This document shows, one piece after another, positions 1-12,811 of a stretch of DNA of 12,811 nt. Source of the DNA: a virus (lineage: Duplodnaviria; Heunggongvirae; Uroviricota; Caudoviricetes). Below the pieces are notes generated by a model, which did no database searches, was not told the origin of the DNA, and was given only the letters and a program-made list of their open reading frames with translations. Location: the IMG/VR virus record IMGVR_UViG_2609459798_000004. One strand, written 5' to 3'. Both the position numbers and the translations under genes were made by a program. Each line of letters begins with the position of its first letter. The first letter of the stretch is position 1.

Positions 1-2
1 CA

Positions 3-227
3 GGAAACACGACCCGCTTTATCAGTGGACACTTCCCTATACCATTCCCTAATCAGCCGATGGTTTCAGTCAGTGTTATGTCTGATGCCGTTCAGTCAGA
101 CCCGTCGAATCCTGCCCCGCAGGTTTTGTCTGTAAATTTTGAACATATCAGTAATTCAGCGTGGCGTGTGGCAACCAGTGATATCTCACAGCAATACAGA
201 TTCAGTTATATTTCGATAGGACGGTAG
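3..227 (+). CDS. Tail-fibre protein, C-terminal variable segment of the cassette currently in the plus orientation; 5' end lies outside the window
   Basis: Frame 3 is open from the window edge for 75 codons to TAG at 225-227 (not in the ORF track because it lacks a long Met-initiated stretch). It ends 2 bp before the ATG of the tail-fibre assembly gene, the usual fibre-then-chaperone arrangement. Position mirrors the minus-strand fibre cassette at 1244-1795. No family match recognised by eye, so identity rests on context. Confidence 0.45.
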   Translation, partial: GNTTRFISGHFPIPFPNQPMVSVSVMSDAVQSDPSNPAPQVLSVNFEHISNSAWRVATSDISQQYRFSYISIGR

Positions 228-229
228 AA

Positions 230-670
230 ATGCAGAAATATATTTTCAGTGCCGATAAAAATGCGTTTTTCCCTGTGGAGCTTAAAATCGCTTATCAGGA
301 ATCCGGCGAATGGCCCGGTGATGGAATCGAAATTGACGACACTGTTGCCGCCGAATTTATGAAGGAAGCACCAGAAGGAAAATACAGAGGTGTCATCGAC
401 GGAATGCCTGCATGGATTGATATTCCACCGCCAACTCATGAGGAACAAATTGCCGCAGCCGAACTGGAAAAGCAGCAATTGATTAATCAGGTCAACGAAT
501 ACATAAACAGAAAGCAATGGCCTGGTAAAGCGGCGATTGGTCGCCTGAAAGGTGGGGAACTGGCGCAATATAATTTGTGGCTGGATTATCTGGACGCACT
601 GGAACTGGTCGATACTTCCGGTGCGCCAGATATTGAATGGCCTACGCCTCCGGCAGTTCAGGCCAGATGA
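230..670 (+). CDS. Tail-fibre assembly protein (Tfa / P2 gpG-like chaperone)
   Basis: 146-aa ORF; AGGA-type SD upstream of ATG 230. C-terminus ...LWLDYLDALELVDTSGAPDIEWPTPP resembles the conserved C-terminal motif of Tfa-family chaperones as I recall it. Sits immediately downstream of the fibre C-terminal cassette. Confidence 0.8.
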   Translation: MQKYIFSADKNAFFPVELKIAYQESGEWPGDGIEIDDTVAAEFMKEAPEGKYRGVIDGMPAWIDIPPPTHEEQIAAAELEKQQLINQVNEYINRKQWPGKAAIGRLKGGELAQYNLWLDYLDALELVDTSGAPDIEWPTPPAVQAR

Positions 671-1244
671 CGTCTGGCGCTGTGCTGGTATCTGTTGCCG
701 TCACCGCGTCAATATAATCCAGCACAGCGTTAAGTCGGGTGTTTTCTGGCTGCGTCAGCTTCCGCCCGGCCTGTAATTTCAGCTGAATCAGACTGATGGA
801 AGCCATTGCAGCATCAATCAGCGACTGGCGCTGTGCTTCTGCCGCTTCTACTGCGGCGCTATGCTGTGCCTCGGTATCCGTCACCCATTTCTCACCATCC
901 CATTTATCGTATGGCGTTAACGGGGCGATAGTGGTTGTATTTTCAGGATAATCACCCGGAGCTGTGATTTCTTTCGATTCTCCTGTTTCGGTGCTATAGA
1001 TGATTTCACCGCGATGGTCTGGCACATATTCCCATGAGTTAAAATCTGCAGAACGGCAGATTGCATAACCAGCTTTATGTGTAACTGGTGCATCTAAACA
1101 AGAACATGCCGGGATACCGACGCCAACCGCAAGATATTCAGTTGATGTGGAAATATATTCCCGCGTTTCACCATCATAATTATAAATGGTAATGACTCCC
1201 GCTTTTATGGCAATGAGTTCGTTATTTAATACGGCTTTATTCAT
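642..1244 (-). CDS. Alternative tail-fibre assembly protein (Tfa') of the opposite-orientation cassette
   Basis: 200-aa ORF on the minus strand. C-terminus ...AVLDYIDAVTATDTSTAPDVIWPELPEA matches the Tfa-family motif. N-terminus MNKAVLNNELIAIKAGVITIYNYDGE... is, from memory, TfaE-like (e14 element). Its 3' end overlaps the plus-strand tfa by 29 bp (642-670), convergently. Confidence 0.8.
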   Translation of the reverse strand: MNKAVLNNELIAIKAGVITIYNYDGETREYISTSTEYLAVGVGIPACSCLDAPVTHKAGYAICRSADFNSWEYVPDHRGEIIYSTETGESKEITAPGDYPENTTTIAPLTPYDKWDGEKWVTDTEAQHSAAVEAAEAQRQSLIDAAMASISLIQLKLQAGRKLTQPENTRLNAVLDYIDAVTATDTSTAPDVIWPELPEA

Positions 1245-1795
1245 CAGGCAGCCCTCACGATATAATTAAAGGCAATGTTACGAGGACGGTTTTCGTTTGC
1301 AGTTGGAACAATTCTTGAAGCATCAAGGCCAATCACTTTTGGGTAAACAGCGCCATCTGTTCTTTCTGTCACCATACTTCTGATTAAGGAGAAATAACTA
1401 TTGTTCGTTGAGGGGTTCAAAGGCACTACTGCCCCCTTAAACGAGCCTACTGATTCCCATATTGAATAATTTTCGGTGTTTACAGTCTTGAACTCACCAT
1501 AGATATTACGTATGGCATCGCCCTGAGCGGATAATATTGCCCTCCCCGTATCCATACCACGTCCGTCATCCCAGCCACGAATAAACTCACCACGTAAATC
1601 AGGCAATTTATTTGTCGGGTAAGCCTTTGCCAGCTCCGGGTATTCTTCAGCAGAAAAAGCTGCTCCGTTGCATTTCAGCCAGCCTGTTGGCGGAGTGGCT
1701 GAAGGCCACGGAACAGGCACCCCAACAGGTAATGCAGAGCCTTCTCCCAAACCAACGTTTAAGAAAATGCAGAGGTAACAGCTAACTGGCATCAT
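1244..1795 (-). CDS. Alternative tail-fibre C-terminal variable cassette (Sv'-like); promoterless in this orientation, and the real reading frame enters at the crossover site near 1767
   Basis: 183-aa minus-strand ORF. Sequence ...GSALPVGVPVPWPSATPPTGWLKCNGAAFSAEEYPELAKAY... and C-terminus ...RNIAFNYIVRAA are typical of Mu S / P1 S / e14 StfE-type fibre tips as I recall them. Its stop (1244-1246) overlaps the start of Tfa' (ATGA). A hix-like crossover site lies within codons about 10-18, so the annotated Met is probably not the true N-terminus. Confidence 0.7.
   Translation of the reverse strand: MMPVSCYLCIFLNVGLGEGSALPVGVPVPWPSATPPTGWLKCNGAAFSAEEYPELAKAYPTNKLPDLRGEFIRGWDDGRGMDTGRAILSAQGDAIRNIYGEFKTVNTENYSIWESVGSFKGAVVPLNPSTNNSYFSLIRSMVTERTDGAVYPKVIGLDASRIVPTANENRPRNIAFNYIVRAA
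1742..1767. other. Candidate 26-bp recombination (crossover) site for the serine invertase (hix/gix/cix-like)
   Basis: TTCTCCCAAACCAACGTTTAAGAAAA: two imperfect 12-bp inverted half-sites (TTCTCCCAAACC / revcomp TTTTCTTAAACG) around a central AA dinucleotide. Compare hixL TTCTTGAAAACCAAGGTTTTTGATAA and gixL TTCCTGTAAACCGAGGTTTTGGATAA as recalled from memory. Located about 55 bp upstream of the invertase gene and inside the 5' end of the minus-strand fibre cassette, as in the Mu G and P1 C segments. Confidence 0.55.
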
Positions 1796-1822
1796 CTCCG
1801 GTTTTTATCCAGGGGGATGATC

Positions 1823-2389
1823 ATGCTTATTGGCTATGTACGCGTGTCAACAAATGACCAGAACACCGATTTGCAACGTAATGCACTGAACTGCGCGGGA
1901 TGTGAGCGGATTTTTGAGGACAAAATCAGTGGCACTAAGTCCGACAGACCGGGGCTGAAAAAACTACTCAGGACACTATCGGCAGGAGACACGCTGGTTG
2001 TCTGGAAGCTGGACAGGTTGGGGCGCAGTATGCGGCATCTTGTTACGCTGATAGAAGAGTTGCGCCAGCGTGGTGTGAATTTCAGAAGCCTGACTGACAG
2101 TATTGATACCAGTACCCCAATGGGCCGTTTCTTTTTTCATGTCATGGGTGCCCTGGCTGAAATGGAACGCGAACTGATAGTTGAACGTACCAGGGCGGGG
2201 CTGGCTGCAGCTCGTGATAAAGGCAGAGTAGGTGGACGCCGTCCTAAGTTGACCACCGAACAGTGGGCACAGATTGGACGCTTACTCGAGGCCGGAGAAT
2301 CAAGACAGCGTATTGCACTGATTTTTGATGTGGGTGTTTCCACAATTTATAGAAAATTTCCGGCAAATAAGAGTAATGAATCCCCCTGA
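1823..2389 (+). CDS. Serine site-specific DNA invertase (Pin/Gin/Hin/Cin family)
   Basis: N-terminus MLIGYVRVSTNDQNTDLQRNAL with the catalytic serine in VRVSTNDQ; conserved VVWKLDRLGRSM, GRFFFHVMGALAEMERELI and C-terminal HTH (GVSTIYRKF). The ORF track starts at ATG 1817, but AGGGGG at 1811-1816 gives good SD spacing only for ATG 1823, which also matches the family N-terminus. Confidence 0.9.
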   Translation: MLIGYVRVSTNDQNTDLQRNALNCAGCERIFEDKISGTKSDRPGLKKLLRTLSAGDTLVVWKLDRLGRSMRHLVTLIEELRQRGVNFRSLTDSIDTSTPMGRFFFHVMGALAEMERELIVERTRAGLAAARDKGRVGGRRPKLTTEQWAQIGRLLEAGESRQRIALIFDVGVSTIYRKFPANKSNESP

Positions 2390-2437
2390 ATCAGCATTAT
2401 TTTGATTATCCCTGCAAGCAGACAAATACCGTCATTT

Positions 2438-2455
2438 TGTGTGAATAACGGTACA
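2438..2455 (+). promoter_or_regulatory. Candidate Ogr-dependent late promoter element (TGT-N12-ACA dyad) upstream of FI
   Basis: TGTgtgaataacggtACA at 2438-2455, about 80 bp upstream of the FI start codon. P2 late promoters (PP, PO, PV, PF) carry a TGT-N12-ACA activator site centred near -55. No strong -10/-35 hexamers were identified by eye, so this is tentative. Confidence 0.3.
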
Positions 2456-2531
2456 ACTGCGCTTAGCTGTTTGTCAGGCACAATCACTTCAACATAGGGC
2501 GAAGCCTAATCCAATCAGGAGGTTCGCCACT

Positions 2532-3704
2532 ATGGCTCAGGATTACCACCACGGGGTGCGCGTTGTTGAAGTCAACGAAGGTACCCGATCCATTACCACG
2601 GTGAGCACCGCCATCGTGGGCATGGTCTGCACGGGCGATGATGCCGATGCAAAAATGTTTCCTCTTAATAAACCCGTGCTGATCACTGATGTGCTGACTG
2701 CCAGCGGTAAAGCGGGTGAGTCCGGCACGCTGGCCCGTTCGCTGGATGCCATCTCTGACCAGGCAAAACCCGTGACCGTTGTTGTGCGTGTGCCGCAGGG
2801 TGAAACGGAAGAAGAAACCACGACCAATATCATCGGCGCAGTGACTGCTGAAGGTAAAAAAACAGGCATGAAAGCCCTGTTATCTGCCCAGACACAGCTC
2901 GGCGTTAAACCGCGCATTCTCGGCGTGCCAGGTCACGATAACAAAGCCGTTGCGACTGAGTTGCTGAGTGTGGCGCAAAGCCTGCGTGGGTTTGCCTACC
3001 TGTCAGCGTATGGCTGCAAGACGGTACAGGAGGCGATCACTTACCGTGAAAACTTCAGCCAGCGCGAAGGAATGCTGATCTGGCCCGACTTTACTGGCTG
3101 GGACACGGTGCTGAATGCCGAAGCAACGGCATATGCCACCGCCCGTGCGCTTGGTCTGCGTGCCAAAATTGATGAGCAGACCGGGTGGCACAAAAGCCTG
3201 TCCAACGTGGGCGTGAACGGTGTCACCGGAATTTCTGCAGATGTGTTCTGGGATCTGCAGGACCCGGCAACCGATGCAGGTCTGCTGAACCAGAACGACG
3301 TCACCACGCTTGTGCGTAAAGACGGTTTCCGCTTCTGGGGTTCCCGCTGCCTGAGTGATGACCCGCTCTTTGCCTTCGAAAACTACACCCGCACGGCGCA
3401 GGTGCTGACGGACACAATGGCAGAAGCGCACATGTGGGCAGTGGACAAACCGCTGAACCCGTCGCTGGCGCGCGACATTATCGAGGGCATCCGCGCCAAA
3501 ATGCGCAGCCTGGTCAGTCAGGGGTATCTCATTGGTGGTGATTGCTGGCTGGACGAGTCGGTGAACGACAAAGACACTCTGAAAGCCGGAAAACTCACCA
3601 TCGACTACGACTACACGCCAGTGCCGCCACTTGAAAACCTGATGTTGCGTCAGCGCATCACCGATCAGTACCTGGTGAATTTCGCCAGCCAGGTCAGCGC
3701 GTAA
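2532..3704 (+). CDS. FI: Contractile tail sheath protein (P2 gpFI-like)
   Basis: 390-aa ORF with strong SD (AGGAGG) 6-7 nt upstream. Size and N-terminus ([39 protein letters not shown]...) match P2 FI sheath as recalled. Followed directly by the tube gene. Confidence 0.9.
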
Positions 3705-3713
3705 GGGGACAAC

Positions 3714-4229
3714 ATGGCTTTACCACGCAAATTAAAACACCTGAACCTGTTTAACGACGGGAACAACTGGCAGGGGATCGTTGAGTCGCTGACGCTGCCG
3801 AAATTCACCCGCAAATATGAGAAGTATCGCGGTGGCGGAATGCCGGGGGCAGTGGATGTGGATCTGGGGCTTGATGACAGTGCGCTGGACACAGAATTTA
3901 CCATTGGTGGTACTGAACTGCTGCTGTTTAAGCAGATGGGCAAAGCCACGGTGGATGGCATCCAGTTGCGCTTTACCGGCTCTATCCAGCGTGACGATAC
4001 CGGGGAAGTGCAGGCCGTGGAGCTTGTGGTGCGTGGACGTCACAAAGAAGTGGATTCCGGTGAGTGGAAGACGGGCGAAAGCAACACCACCAAAGTGACC
4101 AGTACCAACAGCTACGCGAAGCTGACCATCAATGGTGAGGTGCTCTATGAAGTGGACCTTATCAACATGGTGGAAATTGTGGACGGTGTGGACCTGATGG
4201 AAGCGCACCGCAACGCCCTCGGCCTCTGA
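3714..4229 (+). CDS. FII: Tail tube protein (P2 gpFII-like)
   Basis: 171-aa ORF 9 bp after FI, SD AAGGGGA. N-terminus MALPRKLKHLNLFNDGNNWQG... and size match the P2 FII tube protein as recalled. Confidence 0.9.
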   Translation: MALPRKLKHLNLFNDGNNWQGIVESLTLPKFTRKYEKYRGGGMPGAVDVDLGLDDSALDTEFTIGGTELLLFKQMGKATVDGIQLRFTGSIQRDDTGEVQAVELVVRGRHKEVDSGEWKTGESNTTKVTSTNSYAKLTINGEVLYEVDLINMVEIVDGVDLMEAHRNALGL

Positions 4230-4283
4230 TATATCTGAACGGCGCGGGATACCGCGCCAGAACCCAATTGACAGGACAGCAAA

Positions 4284-4586
4284 ATGAGCGATAAGCAGAC
4301 TGAAAAGACCATTCAACTGGATACCCCCATCAAGCGCGGTAAAACAGAAATCACCGAAATTGTGCTGCGTAAACCGCAGTCCGGTGCGCTGCGCGGTACA
4401 CGCCTGCAGGCCATTATGGATATGGATGTAAACGCGATGATGACCGTGATCCCCCGCATCTCCAGTCCGGCACTGACTGCACAGGAAATTGCAGAGATGG
4501 ACCCGGCAGATCTCACTGCCATGTCGGTTGAGGTTGTCACTTTTTTGTTGAAGAAGTCGGTGCTTGCCGGTTTACCGACAGCCTGA
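4284..4586 (+). CDS. E: Tail assembly chaperone gpE (zero-frame product)
   Basis: 100-aa ORF between tube and tape-measure genes, the position of P2 E. Contains a TTTTTTG slippery site near its 3' end. Confidence 0.8.
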   Translation: MSDKQTEKTIQLDTPIKRGKTEITEIVLRKPQSGALRGTRLQAIMDMDVNAMMTVIPRISSPALTAQEIAEMDPADLTAMSVEVVTFLLKKSVLAGLPTA

Positions 4587-4720
4587 CGGTTGACGATCTG
4601 GTGGCAGATATCGCCACCATTTTTCACTGGCCGCCATCCGTTACTGACGTTATGCCGCTGACCGAAGTGCTGGAATGGCGGTATAAAGCGATTCAGAGAA
4701 GCGGGGCCAACGATGAGTGA
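4284..4720 (+). CDS. Tail assembly chaperone gpE+E' produced by programmed -1 ribosomal frameshift
   Basis: After a -1 shift at T TTT TTG (4541-4547) the -1 frame stays open for about 58 codons (FFVEEVGACRFTDSLTVDDLVADIATIFHWPPSVTDVMPLTEVLEWRYKAIQRSGANDE) to TGA at 4718-4720, overlapping the T start codon (4713). Geometry matches the conserved P2 E/E' (lambda G/GT-like) frameshift. Confidence 0.6.
4541..4547 (+). other. Slippery heptamer TTTTTTG for the -1 frameshift in E
   Basis: T TTT TTG read in the E frame as ACT TTT TTG; the same heptamer is the P2 E/E' frameshift site as recalled. Confidence 0.6.
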
Positions 4721-7700
4721 TAACAACCTGCGTCTGCAGGTCATTCTTAATGCGGTTGACAAGCTCACCCGCCCATTTCGATCTGCGCAGGCCAGTTCAA
4801 GAGAACTGGCTGCTGCTGTCAAAAAATCCCGCGATGCAATAAAGCAGCTTGATCAGGCCGGGAGCAGTCTGGACAGCTTCCGAAAGCTGCAGGCAGAAAA
4901 TCAGAAATTAGGCGACAGGCTGAACTATGCCCGCCAGCGTGCAAATTTGCTCAGTCAGGAACTGGGAGCGATGGGGCCGCCTTCGCAACGTCAGGTTGTT
5001 GCTCTGGGCCGTCAACGGCTGGCTGTTCAGCGCCTGGAAGAACGCCAGAAAAAGCTGCAGCAGCAGACGGCGCTTGTGCGTGCTGAACTGTACCGGGCGG
5101 GAATTTCTGCGAAAGACGATGCGGGAGCAACTGCCCGTTTAGCCCGTGAAACATCACGTTATAACCAGGAACTTTCGAAACAGGAGGCGCGGCTGAAGCG
5201 ACTGGGGGAAGCTCAGCGCAGGATGAATGCAGCGCGTGCCAGTTATGCCCGTTCGCTGGAGGTGCGTGATCGTATTGCAGGTGCCGGAGCCACCACCACG
5301 GCTGCAGGGCTGGCAATGGGTGCGCCAGTGATGGCGGCAGTAAAAAGCTATACCAGCATGGAAGATGCCATGAAAGGTGTGGCAAAGCAGGTCAATGGTC
5401 TGCGTGACGATAATGGCAACCGCACTGCACGTTTTTATGAAATGCAGGATGCCATCAAGGCTGCCAGCGAACAGTTGCCGATGGAAAACGGTGCGGTGGA
5501 CTTCGCTGCACTGGTTGAAGGTGGTGCGCGCATGAACGTCGCAAACCCTGACGACAGCTGGGAAGATCAGAAACGTGACCTGCTGGCCTTCGCCAGTACG
5601 GCAGCAAAGGCGGCAACAGCCTTTGAGCTGCCAGCGGATGAACTGTCAGAAAGTCTGGGGAAAATCGCCCAGCTCTACAAAATCCCCACCCGCAATATTG
5701 AACAGCTCGGTGATGCGCTGAACTATCTGGATGATAACGCCATGTCGAAAGGGGCAGACATCATTGATGTGATGCAACGTCTGGGCGGTGTGGCTGACCG
5801 TCTGGATTATCGTAAAGCGGCGGCGCTGGGTTCCACCTTCCTGACACTGGGCGCTGCGCCAGAGGTTGCAGCCAGTGCAGCAAACGCGATGGTGCGTGAA
5901 TTGTCCATTGCCACCATGCAAAGCAAGAGTTTCTTTGAAGGGATGAATCTGCTGAAACTCAATCCTGAAGTGATTGAAAAGCAGATGACGAAGGATGCGA
6001 TGGGAACTATCCAGCGTGTGCTGGAGAAGGTGAACGCACTGCCGCAGGACAAGCGTCTGTCTGCCATGACCATGTTGTTTGGTAAAGAGTTTGGTGATGA
6101 CGCGGCGAAACTGGCAAACAACCTTCCGGAACTGCAGCGCCAGCTAAAACTGACAGCGGGCAATGATGCGCTCGGTTCCATGCAGAAAGAATCCGACATC
6201 AACAAGGACTCACTTTCTGCTCAGTGGTTGCTGGTTAAAACCGGAGCGCAGAATACCTTCAGCAGCCTGGGCGAAACGCTGCGCCAGCCGCTGATGGATA
6301 TTCTGTACACGGTGAAAAGCATTACGGGGGCGTTGCGCCGCTGGGTGGAAGCTAACCCGGAACTGACAGGCACACTGATGAAAGTAGCGGCTGTTGTGGC
6401 TGCGGTTACCGTAGGCCTCGGCACCTTAGCGGTGGCGCTGGCTGCAGTGCTGGGGCCGCTGGCAGTGATCCGTCTGGGATTCTCTGTGCTGGGTATCAAA
6501 ACGTTACCTTCCGTTACGGCAGCAGTAACTCGAACCAGCAGCGCGTTGTCCTGGCTGGCTGGAGCACCACTGGCACTGCTGCGACGCGGGCTTGCTTCAT
6601 CGGGCAACGCCGCAGGTTTACTTACTGCGCCGTTGTCGTCTTTGCGCCGCACGGCATCACTGACGGGAAATGTCCTGAAAACTGTAGCAGGTGCGCCGGT
6701 TGCACTGTTGCGGTCTGGATTATCCGGTTTACGTGCGGTTGCTGTGATGTTTATGAATCCATTGGCAGCACTACGCGGCGGGCTGGCTGCCGCAGGCACG
6801 GTGCTGCGAGTACTGGCATCTGGTCCACTAGCGATGTTGCACGTTGCCCTGTATGCCGTATCTGGTCTGTTAGGTGCTCTGCTTAGTCCGATAGGTCTTG
6901 TGGTTACTGCACTGGCGGGGGTGGCACTGGTTGTCTGGAAATACTGGCAACCCATCACCGCATTTCTCGGTGGCGTGGTGGAAGGATTCAAAGCGGCGGC
7001 AGGTCCCGTCAGTGCAGCGTTCGAACCGCTTAAGCCTGTGTTCCAGTGGATTGGCGACAAAGTGCAGGCGCTATGGGGCTGGTTTACTGATCTGCTGACG
7101 CCCGTTAAGTCGACCTCTGCCGAACTGCAGAGCGCAGCGGCAATGGGGCGACGATTCGGGGAGGCACTGGCGGAAGGGCTGAATATGGTTATGCATCCGC
7201 TGGACTCCCTGAAATCCGGCGTTTCCTGGTTGCTGGATAAACTCGGCATTGTCAGTAAAGAGGCTGCAAAGGCGAAACTGCCGGAAAGCGTGACGCGTCA
7301 GCAACCTGCGACGGTGAATGCAGACGGTAAAGTAATGATGCCATCGGGTGATTTTCCGTCATGGGGATATGGCTTTGCGGGGATGTATGACAGCGGCGGC
7401 TATATCCCGCGCGGGCAGTTTGGCATCGTCGGTGAAAACGGGCCGGAAATTGTTAACGGCCCGGCAAACGTGACCAGCCGGAGAAATACAGCTGCACTGG
7501 CTGCCGTTGTCGCCGGAATGATGGGTGTTGCTGCCGCGCCAGCAGAGCTTCCACCGTTGCATCCTTTGGCGCTTCCCGCAAAAGGCGGTGAAGCGATGGT
7601 GAGTCGTGCAGCTACTGTGCCGCCCATTTACCGGATTGAAGCACCGACGCAGATCATCATCCAGACACAGCCAGGACAAAGTGCGCAGGATATTGCGCGG

Positions 7701-7790
7701 GAGGTGGCCCGCCAGCTTGATGAACGTGAACGCAGGCTGAAGGCAAAAGCCAGGAGTAACTACAGCGATCAGGGGGGATACGACGCATGA
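4713..7790 (+). CDS. T: Tail tape measure protein (gpT-like)
   Basis: 1025-aa ORF. N-terminal region is coiled-coil-like (charged, Q/R/L-rich). Middle has hydrophobic Ala/Leu/Gly-rich segments with degenerate repeats (PLALLRRGL, PVALLRSGL, PLAALRGGL). C-terminal ...YDSGGYIPRGQFGIVGENGPEIVNGPANVTS is typical of tape-measure C-termini. Located between E/E' and U. Confidence 0.9.
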   Translation: MSDNNLRLQVILNAVDKLTRPFRSAQASSRELAAAVKKSRDAIKQLDQAGSSLDSFRKLQAENQKLGDRLNYARQRANLLSQELGAMGPPSQRQVVALGRQRLAVQRLEERQKKLQQQTALVRAELYRAGISAKDDAGATARLARETSRYNQELSKQEARLKRLGEAQRRMNAARASYARSLEVRDRIAGAGATTTAAGLAMGAPVMAAVKSYTSMEDAMKGVAKQVNGLRDDNGNRTARFYEMQDAIKAASEQLPMENGAVDFAALVEGGARMNVANPDDSWEDQKRDLLAFASTAAKAATAFELPADELSESLGKIAQLYKIPTRNIEQLGDALNYLDDNAMSKGADIIDVMQRLGGVADRLDYRKAAALGSTFLTLGAAPEVAASAANAMVRELSIATMQSKSFFEGMNLLKLNPEVIEKQMTKDAMGTIQRVLEKVNALPQDKRLSAMTMLFGKEFGDDAAKLANNLPELQRQLKLTAGNDALGSMQKESDINKDSLSAQWLLVKTGAQNTFSSLGETLRQPLMDILYTVKSITGALRRWVEANPELTGTLMKVAAVVAAVTVGLGTLAVALAAVLGPLAVIRLGFSVLGIKTLPSVTAAVTRTSSALSWLAGAPLALLRRGLASSGNAAGLLTAPLSSLRRTASLTGNVLKTVAGAPVALLRSGLSGLRAVAVMFMNPLAALRGGLAAAGTVLRVLASGPLAMLHVALYAVSGLLGALLSPIGLVVTALAGVALVVWKYWQPITAFLGGVVEGFKAAAGPVSAAFEPLKPVFQWIGDKVQALWGWFTDLLTPVKSTSAELQSAAAMGRRFGEALAEGLNMVMHPLDSLKSGVSWLLDKLGIVSKEAAKAKLPESVTRQQPATVNADGKVMMPSGDFPSWGYGFAGMYDSGGYIPRGQFGIVGENGPEIVNGPANVTSRRNTAALAAVVAGMMGVAAAPAELPPLHPLALPAKGGEAMVSRAATVPPIYRIEAPTQIIIQTQPGQSAQDIAREVARQLDERERRLKAKARSNYSDQGGYDA

Positions 7791-8272
7791 TGATGGTGCT
7801 GGGATTGTACGTGTTTATGCTGCGCACCGTGCCGTATCAGGAGCTGCAGTATCAACGCAGCTGGCGACATGCGGCAAACAGCCGGGTAAACCGACGTCCG
7901 TCCACGCAGTTTCTGGGACCGGACAACGACATGCTGACGCTTTCCGGTGTTCTTATGCCGGAGATAACAGGCGGCAGGCTGTCGTTGCTGGCACTGGAGC
8001 AGATGGCAGAACAGGGGAAAGCATGGCCCCTGATTGAAGGCAGTGGCACGATTTATGGCATGTATGTGATTGAGGGACTGAATCAGACTAAAACGGAGTT
8101 TTTCCGCGACGGTATGCCGCGCCGGATTGAGTTCACCCTGTCGCTCAAACGGGTGGATGAATCCCTGTCCGATATATTCGGTGATCTCAGTGCGCAACTG
8201 AATAATCTGCAGGACACAGCAACGTCTGCCTTAAGCGATATCAGTAAAACGGTGGGAGGGCTGCTGTCATGA
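7787..8272 (+). CDS. U: Tail protein gpU-like
   Basis: 161-aa ORF overlapping the T stop (ATGATGATG). N-terminus MMMVLGLYVFMLRTVPYQELQYQRSWRH... resembles P2 gpU as recalled; ...WPLIEGSGTIYGMYVIEGLNQTKTEFFRDGMPRRIEFTLSLKRVDE is conserved in the family. Confidence 0.85.
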   Translation: MMMVLGLYVFMLRTVPYQELQYQRSWRHAANSRVNRRPSTQFLGPDNDMLTLSGVLMPEITGGRLSLLALEQMAEQGKAWPLIEGSGTIYGMYVIEGLNQTKTEFFRDGMPRRIEFTLSLKRVDESLSDIFGDLSAQLNNLQDTATSALSDISKTVGGLLS

Positions 8273-9369
8273 ATTTCAGCTCTGAACTGCTTAACAAAGG
8301 CAACAAAACTCCCGCATTCAGCATCAGTATTGAGGGCAGGGATATCACCACTGTGCTGGATAACCGCCTGATGAGTTTGACGCTGACGGACAATCGGGGC
8401 TTTGAAGCGGACCAGCTTGATCTGGAACTGGACGACGCCGACGGAAAAATCGTGCTGCCGCGCCGTGGTGCGGTTATTACGCTGGCGCTGGGCTGGAAGG
8501 GGCAGCCGCTTTTCCCGAAAGGGGCATTCACGGTGGACGAGATTGAACACACTGGCGCACCGGACCGCCTGACTATCCGGGCGCGAAGTGCTGATTTTCG
8601 TGAAACGCTGAATACCCGCCGTGAAAAGTCGTGGCACAAGACCACCGTCGGGGAAGTGGTGAAGGAAATAGCTGTGCGGCACAAACTGAAGATGGCATTG
8701 GGTAAAGACCTGTCAGATAAACCCGTGGAACATATAGACCAGACCAATGAGAGTGACGGCAGTTTTCTGATGCGGCTGGCGCGCCAGTACGGTGCTATTG
8801 CGTCGGTGAAAAATGGCAATCTGTTATTCATCCGGCAGGGACAGGGTAAAAGCGCCAGCGGTAAACCACTACCGGTTATCACTATCACACGTAAGGACGG
8901 CGACAGTCACCGCTTTACCCTGGCAGATCGCGGAGCCTACACGGGCGTAATTGCCAGCTGGTTGCATACCCGCGAACCCGCGAAGAATGAAAGCACCACG
9001 GTGAAGCGTAAGCGCAGGACTAAGAAGCAGAAGAAAGAGCCGGAAGCGAAGCAGGGCGATTACCTGGTGGGTACAGATGAAAACGTGCTGGTACTTAATC
9101 GCACCTATGCCAACCGGAGCAACGCCGAACGGGCGGCGAAAATGCAGTGGGAACGCCTGCAACGCGGCGTTGCGTCATTCTCGCTACAACTGGCAGAAGG
9201 TCGGGCAGATCTCTACACGGAAATGCCAGTGAAAGTCAGTGGCTTTAAACAGCCGATAGATGATGCGGAATGGACCATTACGACTCTGACGCATACCGTC
9301 AGCCCCGATAACGGTTTTACAACCAGTCTGGAGCTTGAAGTGAGGATTGATGATTTCGAAATGGAATGA
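8269..9369 (+). CDS. D: Tail protein gpD-like (late control D / baseplate-hub family)
   Basis: 366-aa ORF overlapping the U stop by 4 bp (ATGA), in the P2 D position immediately upstream of ogr. Confidence 0.85.
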   Translation: MNFSSELLNKGNKTPAFSISIEGRDITTVLDNRLMSLTLTDNRGFEADQLDLELDDADGKIVLPRRGAVITLALGWKGQPLFPKGAFTVDEIEHTGAPDRLTIRARSADFRETLNTRREKSWHKTTVGEVVKEIAVRHKLKMALGKDLSDKPVEHIDQTNESDGSFLMRLARQYGAIASVKNGNLLFIRQGQGKSASGKPLPVITITRKDGDSHRFTLADRGAYTGVIASWLHTREPAKNESTTVKRKRRTKKQKKEPEAKQGDYLVGTDENVLVLNRTYANRSNAERAAKMQWERLQRGVASFSLQLAEGRADLYTEMPVKVSGFKQPIDDAEWTITTLTHTVSPDNGFTTSLELEVRIDDFEME

Positions 9370-9459
9370 TTCTTCGCAATGGAGAACTTTTAAGTTTGCA
9401 AAATGGAATAATGCGGTATCATTATTGTGAATTTAGCAAAAATGGGGAGAACTCGAAAA

Positions 9460-9678
9460 ATGATGATTTGCCCACTGTGTGGAAGTGCCGCCCATACTCG
9501 CAGCAGTTTTCAGGTATCTTCATTGACTAAAGAGCGTTACAACCAGTGCCAGAACATTAACTGCAGCCATACTTTTGTTACCCATGAAACTTTTGTTCGT
9601 TCGATTGCAACGCCAAAAGAGTCAAATCCGGTTCAGCCGCATCCAATGAAATCAGGACAGGTGGCGCTCTCTCTTTGA
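9460..9678 (+). CDS. ogr: Ogr/Delta-family zinc-finger late transcription activator
   Basis: MMICPLCGSAAHTRSS...YNQCQNINCSHTF has the C-x2-C-x22-C-x4-C zinc finger of Ogr. The ORF track starts at GTG 9427, but GGGGAGA (9445-9451) is placed for ATG 9460, giving about 72 aa as in P2 Ogr. Confidence 0.85.
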   Translation: MMICPLCGSAAHTRSSFQVSSLTKERYNQCQNINCSHTFVTHETFVRSIATPKESNPVQPHPMKSGQVALSL

Positions 9679-9758
9679 CGCTGCCGCCATTTTGTCGCCA
9701 TCGTTAAAAAACAGTGTTTCTAACATCATGATTTTAAACAGCTTAAATTTCAGGCAAC

Positions 9759-9801
9759 AAAAAACCCATCAACCTTGAACCGAAATGGCGGGGTTGATGG
9801 G
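9759..9801 (-). terminator. Candidate rho-independent terminator (minus strand), about 115 nt downstream of ybjL
   Basis: On the minus strand: CCCATCAACC, 17-nt loop, GGTTGATGGG, then TTTTTT (perfect 10-bp stem at 9765-9774 / 9792-9801, A-run on the plus strand at 9759-9764). No T-run follows on the plus strand, so it is not obviously bidirectional. Confidence 0.5.
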
Positions 9802-9913
9802 CTCCACAAAATGGGGACATCAAAGAAAAGCAGTGGCACTAATTAAGACTGATGCCCTGCGGAAAAGTTCTGCGGTTGTGCAAAAAAATTTCATTTTCAG
9901 GGCAACTTCAGTT

Positions 9914-11599
9914 TTATCCTAATCCTGGCCATACCATGACGATGATTGTCCCTGCCAGCGTCAGCAGGACGTTGGCGATTGCATAGGTGCCCGCATAGCC
10001 CAGCGCCGGGATGTTACTGCGAGCTGTATCACTGATGATCTCCATTGCCGGCGCGCAGGTACGTGCGCCCATCATTGCGCCGAACAACAGCGCGCGGTTC
10101 ATTCGCAATACATAAGCACCGAACAAGAAACAGATAACCACGGGCACCAGACTGACAATCAATCCGGCAATCAACATCTGACCGCCAATCGCGCCCAGGC
10201 CGTTATTAATACCGCTACCGGCGCTCAGACCAACGCCTGCCATAAACACCATCAAGCCGAACTCTTTCACCATGCTTAATGCACCCTGCGGAATGTAACC
10301 GAAGGTCGGGTGGTTAGCACGCATAAAGCCCAGCATAATTCCGGCGAATAACAACCCGGCAGCGTTCCCCATGCCGAAACTGAATGTGCTGAACTGGAAG
10401 GTGATCATCCCGATCATCAGCCCAATAACAAAGAAGGCGCAAAATGCCAGCAGGTCAGTGACCTGGCTGTGAATCGAGATAAAGCCGATGCGATCGGCGA
10501 TGGTTTTTACGCGACGGGCATCACCGCTGACTTGTAAAACGTCACCTTTGTTAAGCACGACGTTGTCATCTATCGGCATCTCAATCTGGCTACGAATGAC
10601 GCGGTTAAGGAAGCAACCGTGATCGGTCAACTTCAGTTGTGCGAGACGTTTACCTACAGCGTTATGGTTTTTAACGACCACTTCTTCAGTGACGATACGC
10701 ATGTCGAGAAGGTCACGATCGAAAACTTCTTTACCGTTACGGAAGCTGGGATCGAGTCGGGCATGGGCGTCGGGATAGCCTACCAACGCTATTTCATCGC
10801 CCATTTGTAGCACGGCATCACCGTCTGGATTTGCCAGAATCCCGTTACGTCGAATACGTTCAATGTAGCAGCCGGTTTGTCGATAAATACCCAGTTCACG
10901 CAGATTTTTGCCGTCGGTCCAGGCCACCAGCTCCGGGCCGACGCGATAGGCGCGGATCACCGGTAAATAAACCTTACGGTTGGCATCAGTGTCCAGGCCA
11001 CGTTCGCGGGCGATTTGCTGGGCGCTGGTCTGTAAGTCCTGATGCTGCAATTTCGGCAAGTAACGCGCACCAACAATCAAACTCACCAGACCGATTAAAT
11101 AGGTTAAGGCATACCCGAGGCTCAGATTATCCAGTGCCAGTGAGAGCTGCCTGCTTTCCATGCCGGAATGACGCAGTGTATCGCCAGCACCGACCAGAAC
11201 CGGTGTCGACGTCATAGAGCCTGCTAACATACCGGCCGTCAGGCCAATATCCCAGCCAAACAGCTTACCTAACCCTAAGGCGATCACCAGCGCACTGCCA
11301 ACCATCACCAGTGCTAACATTAGGTAATTTTTCCCATCGCGAAAAAAAATGGAAAAAAAGTTCGGTCCGGCTTCAACCCCAACACAGAAAATAAACAGCA
11401 TAAAGCCAAGATTAAGCGCATCGGTGTTAATGCTGAAATGTTGTTGGCCTAATAACAGCGATACGACTAAAACGCCAATGGAATTACCCAGTTGGATCGA
11501 ACCAAGTCGTAACTTTCCGAGACATAGCCCAAGCGCGAGGACCACAAATAATAACAGAATGTAATTCCCATTTAACAATTCGGCGACGTTTATATTCAC
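9914..11599 (-). CDS. ybjL: Putative transport protein YbjL (AAE/YidE-family membrane transporter)
   Basis: 561-aa ORF with GTG start; N-terminus [42 protein letters not shown]... and the hydrophobic / soluble-domain / hydrophobic layout match E. coli YbjL as recalled. Adjacent divergent ybjM fits the chromosomal gene order. Confidence 0.85.
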
Positions 11600-11868
11600 G
11601 GAGGCTAACTTCTTGTTTACTAGTAAGCTGTTGAAAGAAATGGTAATTTACGATAATGTTTTTTACCAGAATTCAGGGCGCAGATTCATTCAGCGCACCT
11701 AAACGATAGTAAAGTAACAATATATTTTACTAGTGTAATCACATTAGGTATCAACGGCTATATGAATTGCGTTGGCCTATATTAGCATGGAATGCGAAGC
11801 GGCTTTATCTTACTGAACGCCACACTGGCGAAAAATGTGTTCGATAGACGCAGTGTCAGGAGGAACGA

Positions 11869-12246
11869 GTGAAACATAAACAACGTTGGGCGGGGGCAAT
11901 CTGCTGTTTTGTCCTCTTCATTGTGGTGTGCCTTTTTCTGGCGACGCACATGAAAGGCGCTTTTCGGGCTGCCGGGCATCCTGAAATCGGCTTGCTATTT
12001 TTCATTCTTCCTGGAGCAGTCGCCAGCTTCTTTTCACAGCGTAGAGAAGTCCTGAAACCTCTGTTTGGCGCAATGCTGGCGGCACCCTGTTCGATGCTCA
12101 TTATGCGGCTGTTTTTTTCACCGACGCGCTCATTCTGGCAAGAGCTGGCATGGTTATTAAGTGCGGTGTTCTGGTGTGCGCTGGGGGCACTGTGTTTCTT
12201 ATTTATCAGTAGTTTGTTTAAACCACAGCACAGAAAAAATCAGTAA
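11869..12246 (+). CDS. ybjM: Inner-membrane protein YbjM
   Basis: 125-aa hydrophobic ORF with GTG start 4 nt after SD CAGGAGGA; divergent from ybjL and followed by grxA on the opposite strand, as in the E. coli chromosome. Confidence 0.8.
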   Translation: MKHKQRWAGAICCFVLFIVVCLFLATHMKGAFRAAGHPEIGLLFFILPGAVASFFSQRREVLKPLFGAMLAAPCSMLIMRLFFSPTRSFWQELAWLLSAVFWCALGALCFLFISSLFKPQHRKNQ

Positions 12247-12275
12247 AGCCCTCAACGCGAGGGCTTGTCAGACGA

Positions 12276-12425
12276 TCAGGCGTCCAGATTTTCTTTCACC
12301 CATGCAGCAAAATCGGTATAGCCGCCGATATGTTGCTGATCGACAAAAATCTGCGGCACGGTTTCTACGGGTTTACCTGCCTTTTGTTGTAGATCTTCTT
12401 TAGTGATCCCTTCCGCACGAATATC
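12276..12425 (-). pseudogene. grxA: Glutaredoxin 1 gene, 3' fragment only (about 49 codons), truncated by IS1
   Basis: Minus-strand translation DIRAEGITKEDLQQKAGKPVETVPQIFVDQQHIGGYTDFAAWVKENLDA-stop matches the C-terminal half of E. coli GrxA as recalled. The reading frame runs straight into the IS1 terminal repeat at 12426; the N-terminal part with the CPYC active site is absent from this side. Confidence 0.8.
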
Positions 12426-12811
12426 GGTAATGACTCCAACTTATTGATAGTGTTTTATGTTCAGATAATGCCCGATGACTTTGTCATGCAGCTCCACCGA
12501 TTTTGAGAACGACAGCGACTTCCGTCCCAGCCGTGCCAGGTGCTGCCTCAGATTCAGGTTATGCCGCTCAATTCGCTGCGTATATCGCTTGCTGATTACG
12601 TGCAGCTTTCCCTTCAGGCGGGATTCATACAGCGGCCAGCCATCCGTCATCCATATCACCACGTCAAAGGGTGACAGCAGGCTCATAAGACGCCCCAGCG
12701 TCGCCATAGTGCGTTCACCGAATACGTGCGCAACAACCGTCTTCCGGAGCCTGTCATACGCGTAAAACAGCCAGCGCTGGCGCGATTTAGCCCCGACATA
12801 GCCCCACTGTT
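12426..12811 (-). mobile_element. IS1 insertion sequence, IRR end (partial; continues beyond window)
   Basis: Begins GGTAATGACTCCAACTTATTGATAGTGTTTTATGTTCAGATAATGCCCGATGAC..., matching the IS1 right terminal inverted repeat as recalled, followed by the insB coding region on the minus strand. Confidence 0.9.
12441..12811 (-). CDS. insB: IS1 transposase InsB, 3' portion (5' end outside window)
   Basis: Minus-strand frame is open from the window edge: ...[122 protein letters not shown]-stop, matching IS1 InsB as recalled. The ORF track shows only the Met-initiated part, 12441-12707. Confidence 0.85.

Follow-up and report, generated by a model that had tools for sequence, protein, structure and literature searches.

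The segment between ogr and ybjL at positions 9679–9913 of the window (the whole stretch of DNA that was analysed, 12,811 nt) was assigned with high confidence as the attR of a P2-like prophage of the Fels-2/186-type group, formed in the 3' end of the small-RNA gene rybB by site-specific recombination of the tyrosine-recombinase type. The evidence comprises the break of collinearity with prophage-free E. coli genomes, a short direct repeat at the int end of related complete prophages, a full-length rybB gene in the gap and the structure of the phage arm.

Organisation of the window

The junction is flanked by the following genes:

4713–7790 (+): tail tape measure gene, gpT-like; Pfam PhageMin_Tail; relatives annotate tape measure.
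7787–8272 (+): gpU-like tail gene; Pfam Phage_P2_GpU, E = 2e-44.
8269–9369 (+): gpD-like late control/baseplate hub gene; Pfam Phage_GPD.
9460–9678 (+): ogr, zinc-finger late-gene activator, final phage gene before att; Pfam Ogr_Delta, E = 6.7e-22.
9914–11599 (−): ybjL, chromosomal, aspartate:alanine antiporter family; Pfam Asp-Al_Ex and TrkA_C; RefSeq annotation.

The late genes stand in the order T-U-D-ogr, which by the Pfam matches is that of rybB-site P2-like prophages, with ogr ending at 9678 next to the attachment site; every late gene of the window is an intact open reading frame. The start of ogr at 9460 is the start annotated in relatives, where the product has 72 aa, and a promoter-like site was located ahead of the gene (9395–9422). 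The gap from the ogr stop to ybjL (9679–9913) has a length of 235 bp; a preliminary description of this DNA had given the same gene succession and the same gap, and the Pfam matches and open reading frames agree with it. A tRNA or tmRNA gene was looked for as a possible target and none was found within the window.

Tail-fibre segment: A Resolvase-family invertase gene (1817–2389, +) adjoins opposed tail-fibre and tail-fibre-assembly ORFs (642–2389); the tail-fibre segment was met in both orientations in related loci (L015 and L017, 4163–7677), the fibre gene being of 504 or 468 aa and the assembly genes being swapped, which suggests an invertible host-range switch.

IS1 in grxA: The end of an IS1 element (GGTAATGACTCCAACTTATTGAT) begins at 12426, inside grxA, where the collinearity with K-12 ends; an IS1 transposase fragment lies at 12441–12707 on the minus strand, and glutaredoxin 1 (grxA) thus appears to be interrupted in the genome of the window.

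Prophage boundary and attachment core

Two segments define the boundary:

9756–9769: common core AACAAAAAACCCAT; final 14 nt of rybB; predicted strand-exchange segment in K-12-type hosts.
9744–9769: extended segment of att identity, TAAATTTCAGGCAACAAAAAACCCAT; no mismatch to the B2-type attB allele or to attL of CFT073; 21/26 with the K-12-type attB.

Prophage-free E. coli: rcdA (ybjK) and ybjL converge over 174 bp that contain rybB, and rcdA abuts rybB. The K-12-like empty site was aligned with window positions 9744–12425 at 99.5% identity, the match being perfect only from 9756; collinearity begins at 9756 exactly, or at 9744 with mismatches tolerated. The preliminary description had read a right (ogr-side) junction of a P2-like prophage, with its boundary somewhere in 9679–9913, and both statements are confirmed by this break after T-U-D-ogr. 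It had also proposed a comparison with prophage-free E. coli and a search for a direct repeat at the int end as checks; collinearity extends no further into the phage genes, and the repeat is present in related complete genomes (14 bp in NZ_CP033250.1, 27 bp in CFT073).

NZ_CP033250.1: The equivalent of 9679–9913 is identical to the window (0 mismatches) and belongs to a complete prophage, from ogr to int; a second copy of AACAAAAAACCCAT lies at a distance of 36,021 bp, flanked by the rcdA stop codon and the int end of the phage. The sites read as follows, attL being taken from the related genome (slashes delimit the core):

attB: ...TAGAT / AACAAAAAACCCAT / CAACCTTG...
attL: rcdA-...TAGAT / AACAAAAAACCCAT / TTATGTAAACGGG...
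attR: ...TTTCAGGC / AACAAAAAACCCAT / CAACCTTG...

AACAAAAAACCCAT is the sole segment common to attL, attR and attB in the locus of this prophage (L001) and K-12, and it was taken as the att core because it is repeated at the prophage int end, adjoining rcdA, in related complete genomes. On the RNA strand the core (AUGGGUUUUUUGUU) comprises five bases at the end of the stem, the U-tract and the GUU with which rybB ends. A matching attL (AACAAAAAACCCAT followed by TTATGTAAACGGGTT, adjoining rcdA) is to be expected in the genome of the window itself, judging from the relatives with an identical junction.

CFT073: The arrangement is the same, with a repeat of 27 bp, and only 5 positions of 9679–9913 differ from the window. 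The prophage PhiECO3 of this strain was placed at 908870–942351 (Nilsson 2011, PMC3448106); on verification of the coordinates, 908870 and 942351 proved to be the first core base at attL and attR, respectively, between rcdA and ybjL.

attB alleles: B2-type strains (empty sites of Z247 and M70; attL of CFT073) carry TAGATAAATTTCAGGC before the core and share 26–27 bp with attP; K-12-type strains carry TAGATAAGTTTTAGAT, with 14 perfect bases and 21/26 overall; ATTTCAGGC precedes the core at attL in several other enterobacterial genera too. From the identity of 26–27 bp in the one type and 14 bp in the other, the core of the phage is put at ca. 26 bp (9744–9769); in K-12-type hosts strand exchange would be confined to 9756–9769. 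Both alleles (K-12 type, L002/L003; B2 type, L022/L023; L021, position 2371) were found occupied. The ST2747 genome (L024) does not contain the exact 14-mer core.

Occurrence of the site and history of the insertion

Of 5,426 complete E. coli genomes, 4,227 matched the empty-site query without a break, and in ca. 22% the rybB site was split at the core; in all eight chromosomal split genomes that were sampled the rcdA-side match ends not more than one base from the last core base. The ogr-rybB-ybjL junction was counted in 1,115 genomes (at least 80% of the 1-kb query covered). The site has been described repeatedly: P2-type prophages of E. coli W, B and Crooks ("Rybb*") were listed as inserted at the "rybB ncRNA" (Archer 2011, PMC3032704), the prophages PhiECO1, PhiECO2 and PhiECO3 of E. 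coli HS, ATCC 8739 and CFT073 were assigned to it (Nilsson 2011, PMC3448106), and Felsduovirus prophages occupy it as defence hotspot #29 (Hochhauser 2023, PMC10121019); sRNA genes were treated as prophage targets in general by Bobay 2013 (PMC3603311). The suggestion of an unusual integration site, made in the preliminary description, was not upheld, the site being split in about 22% of the complete genomes and covered in at least three papers: the rybB attR is ordinary, frequent and already in the literature. The prophage of the window is a member of the group with regulation and integrase of the Fels-2/186 type, for which recent work uses the name "Felsduovirus".

The prophage may have reached this lineage by homologous recombination of a larger prophage-bearing segment (e.g., by transduction or conjugation) and not by integration in the lineage itself. 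This history is possible, if rather unlikely; the same prophage and junction occur across about a fifth of E. coli genomes, and phage arms and host flanks are found in several allele combinations, but it concerns the past of the junction and not its nature, since the att structure is the same either way and one window cannot distinguish the two.

A decayed or truncated remnant, that is, a real junction with a right end deprived of a functional int end and a fossil attR, is improbable. The left end lies beyond the window, no complete E. coli genome came closer than 97.5% identity over window positions 1–12425, and the IS1 in grxA at 12426 indicates IS activity nearby; against this, all late genes of the window are intact ORFs, complete 36-kb prophages that possess int and attL have the 235-bp gap in identical form, and an identical tape-measure protein is encoded in many assemblies with the same junction. 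Among the listed contigs that encode the identical tape-measure protein, none carried the IS1 insertion in grxA.

Variants: The prophage of NZ_CM176618.1 (L006, 5447–5809) has a diverged ogr and an extra gene for a hypothetical protein of 120 aa between ogr and attR, so that small cargo can occupy the att-proximal end. The cargo of related prophages varies at two fixed positions (L001, 26596–30462 and 37145–38821; L021, 11826–14186 and 3951–4922): between the portal gene and the replication genes, a DprA-like protein with a P-loop NTPase in one prophage and a TIGR02391 protein in the other; between cI and int, a DUF4041/T5orf172 protein in one and a hypothetical protein in the other. These two positions fit the published defence hotspots of these phages. 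One lysogen (GCA_029533395.1; L018, 17821–18766) has lost ybjC, nfsA and rimK between grxA and ybjN; the loss of nfsA (nitroreductase) is of interest for nitrofuran susceptibility.

The rybB gene and its terminator

The following elements were located on the minus strand of the gap:

9756–9834 (−): rybB small-RNA gene; Rfam RF00110.
9763–9803 (−): stem of the rybB intrinsic terminator hairpin, with the U-tract at 9759–9764; RNA fold; inverted repeat CCCATCAACC/GGTTGATGGG.
9844–9870 (−): sigma-E-type promoter-like site for rybB, GAACTT-16 nt-TCTTA; motif match just upstream of rybB.

The match to RF00110 scored 105.3 bits (gathering score 40; E = 1.6e-22) and covers model positions 1–79 of 79, not truncated. 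The 79 nt in the window are identical to rybB of two prophage-free genomes (L002 and L003), where the gene occupies a conserved position, flanked by rcdA (ybjK) and ybjL and oriented like ybjL. The preliminary description had overlooked the gene, full-length as it is in the gap. Its statement that no tRNA is present is right for the window and misleading all the same, for the part of a tRNA gene is filled by the sRNA gene rybB. From the published RybB sequence (5' GCCACUGC...) the true 5' end lies probably at 9837. The GAACTT-16-TCTTA motif has its sole match in the window at this site (0.07 expected by chance); it is a predicted promoter, and its assignment to sigma-E follows the established regulation of RybB.

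Terminator hairpin: A stem of 12 pairs is followed by the U-tail UUUUUUGUU; MFE −24.1 kcal/mol, z = −3.3, none of 200 shuffles being as stable. No terminator was found by a generic scan of 9300–10100, because the rybB loop exceeds the loop limit of the scan; the identity of the terminator was settled by direct RNA folding and Rfam. The minus-strand terminator hairpin noticed in the gap beforehand is therefore real. It had been offered as a ybjL terminator and/or a part of the att core: it does overlap the core, and the former name is incomplete, the hairpin being by Rfam first of all the terminator of rybB; transcripts running through from ybjL, which has the same orientation, would be terminated by it as well. 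That it is a plain ybjL terminator, the target of the phage being a terminator between genes instead of an RNA gene (the earlier reading), is scarcely credible: the hairpin does follow the ybjL stop by 110 nt, on the strand of that gene, and read-through would end in it, but the full-length RybB match (105 bits) ends exactly with hairpin and U-tract, the sigma-E-type promoter-like site stands between rybB and ybjL, and the site bears the name rybB in the literature (PMC10121019, PMC3032704).

Phage arm, attP and integrase

Between ogr and the core the following were distinguished:

9679–9755: phage-derived P arm of attR, 77 bp; absent at empty sites; continuous with the int-side arm in the attP of Klebsiella phage KP12.
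9682–9703 (+): tandem pair of 11-bp repeats, TGCCGCCATTT TGTCGCCATCG, putative Int binding sites of the arm type; match to the 186-type consensus.
9721–9733 (−): IHF-like site AATCATGATGTTA, weak; one mismatch to WATCAANNNNTTR.

Arm repeats: These begin four bases past the ogr stop. The consensus is tgccGCCActt for integrases of the 186 type and tgTGGaCa for those of the P2 type (Nilsson 2011, PMC3448106); the pair in the window matches the former, as in rybB-site prophages. In related prophages the tandem pair also occurs on the int-side arm, as TGCCGCCACTT TGTCGCCACTT, and is conserved there in representatives of eight species. IHF-like matches were no commoner across the window than expected by chance; the site at 9721–9733 is suggestive through its position between arm repeats and core, and that position is all that counts in its favour.

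attP: The reconstructed site (ogr arm, core, int arm) is continuous in Klebsiella phage KP12, with 96.1% identity over the junction; the junction of an attP circle would contain the sequence TTTCAGGCAACAAAAAACCCATTTATGTAAACGGG. The record of Klebsiella phage 4LV2017 annotates attL/attR as (G)CAGGCAACAAAAAACCCAT, with the core inside. Paired with a half-stem from the phage, the core of attP and attL forms a terminator-like hairpin downstream of int, ACCCGUUUA-CAUA-UAAAUGGGU followed by UUUUUUGUU, which is only modestly stable (−9.4 kcal/mol, z = −1.3); the phage copy of the core imitates the rybB terminator in its 3' half, and hairpin and U-tract are kept in both hybrid sites. An exact 29-mer over the attL/attP junction was found in species representatives of Raoultella, Silvania, Klebsiella michiganensis, Citrobacter freundii, Leclercia, Scandinavium and two cryptic Escherichia lineages. 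The KP12 sequence (OM835953.1, clone KP12_3; L004) is filed under Vequintavirinae, yet it is a 34.8-kb P2-like genome with ogr-attP-int, probably a co-isolated induced prophage.

Integrase: The related copies encode, next to attL, a tyrosine recombinase with Int_N and Phage_integrase domains; identity is 98.8–99.4% to the integrases of the Klebsiella and E. coli phage group, ca. 55% to the nearest outside it (from other P2-like phages) and 39% to P2 Int. A canonical P2 att was rejected on this last value, on the arm repeats, of the 186 type and not tgTGGaCa, and on the lack of any match of the attP query to a P2 record at blastn sensitivity. The preliminary description had not recognised the canonical P2 core in the gap, which is explained by the integrase, only 39% identical to P2 Int.

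Relation to known systems

rybB-site prophages: PhiECO1/2/3, the "Rybb*" elements and the hotspot #29 prophages share with the window the site (rcdA on one side, rybB-ybjL on the other), the core, the 186-type ogr arm and the late-gene order; differences of the PhiECO-type prophages from the window are allelic only, the window being known without cargo and int end. Klebsiella phages 4LV2017 (Elveevirus) and KP12 have the same attP arms and core and an integrase 98.8–99.4% identical to the E. coli copies, but differ in host genus, in tail-fibre and cargo genes and in a longer identity with the Klebsiella attB.

186-like phages: Coliphage 186 (tRNA-Ile), Fels-2 and SopE-phi (ssrA) likewise use a tyrosine integrase at the 3' end of a structured-RNA gene which the attP copy restores, and have arm repeats of the tgccGCCActt type in common with the rybB-site prophage; their targets are tRNA and tmRNA genes, whereas that of the rybB-site prophage is an Hfq-dependent sRNA gene, with a short core of 14–27 bp.

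Phage P2: The gene order T-U-D-ogr-attP-int is the same as in the rybB-site prophage; the two differ in the integrase (39% identity) and in the repeats (tgTGGaCa in P2, 186-type in the other). The P2 core has a length of ca. 27 bp and may match attB imperfectly.

Other sRNA loci: In the passages of PMC3603311 that cite Balbontin 2008 and Wassarman 2001, the loci ryeB/ryeA (SdsR/SraC) and ryeE (CyaR) are named as phage insertion sites; on that account they resemble rybB as terminator-bearing sRNA genes targeted by P2-like elements, and differ in the sRNA and in the specificity of the integrase.

Proposed course of integration

The attP of the phage carries the last 14 nt of rybB and about 12 nt that follow, i.e., a copy of the descending half of the terminator stem, of the U-tract and of the sequence just downstream. 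Strand exchange within the core (9756–9769 in a K-12-type host) would place the phage DNA directly after an exactly rebuilt rybB; the sequence of the sRNA is thereby unchanged, including the terminator and the U-tail to which Hfq binds. On the other side, at attL, the same 14 nt would combine with the phage-borne half-stem to the terminator-like hairpin downstream of int. The two tandem 186-type repeats of the 77-bp P arm would be bound by the N-terminal domain of Int; this binding and the exact cleavage positions are put forward from the sequences of the sites.

The genes ogr and rybB are convergent, and a scan of the plus strand between them found no terminator with a U-tail. Read-through from ogr might give an RNA antisense to RybB and, in lysogens or on induction, weaken the response to envelope stress that runs through sigma-E and RybB; such a grip of the prophage on the sRNA is speculative and very unlikely.

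Significance

The main value of the assignment lies in correct annotation: the boundary is placed to the 14-bp core at 9756–9769, and the "terminator" in the gap is in fact the 3' end, an essential part, of a conserved sRNA of the envelope-stress response. The rybB site is a standard hotspot of P2-like prophages with variable anti-phage defence cargo. The principle has been documented before, and the junction is a clear case of it: an sRNA gene used by a phage as others use tRNA genes.
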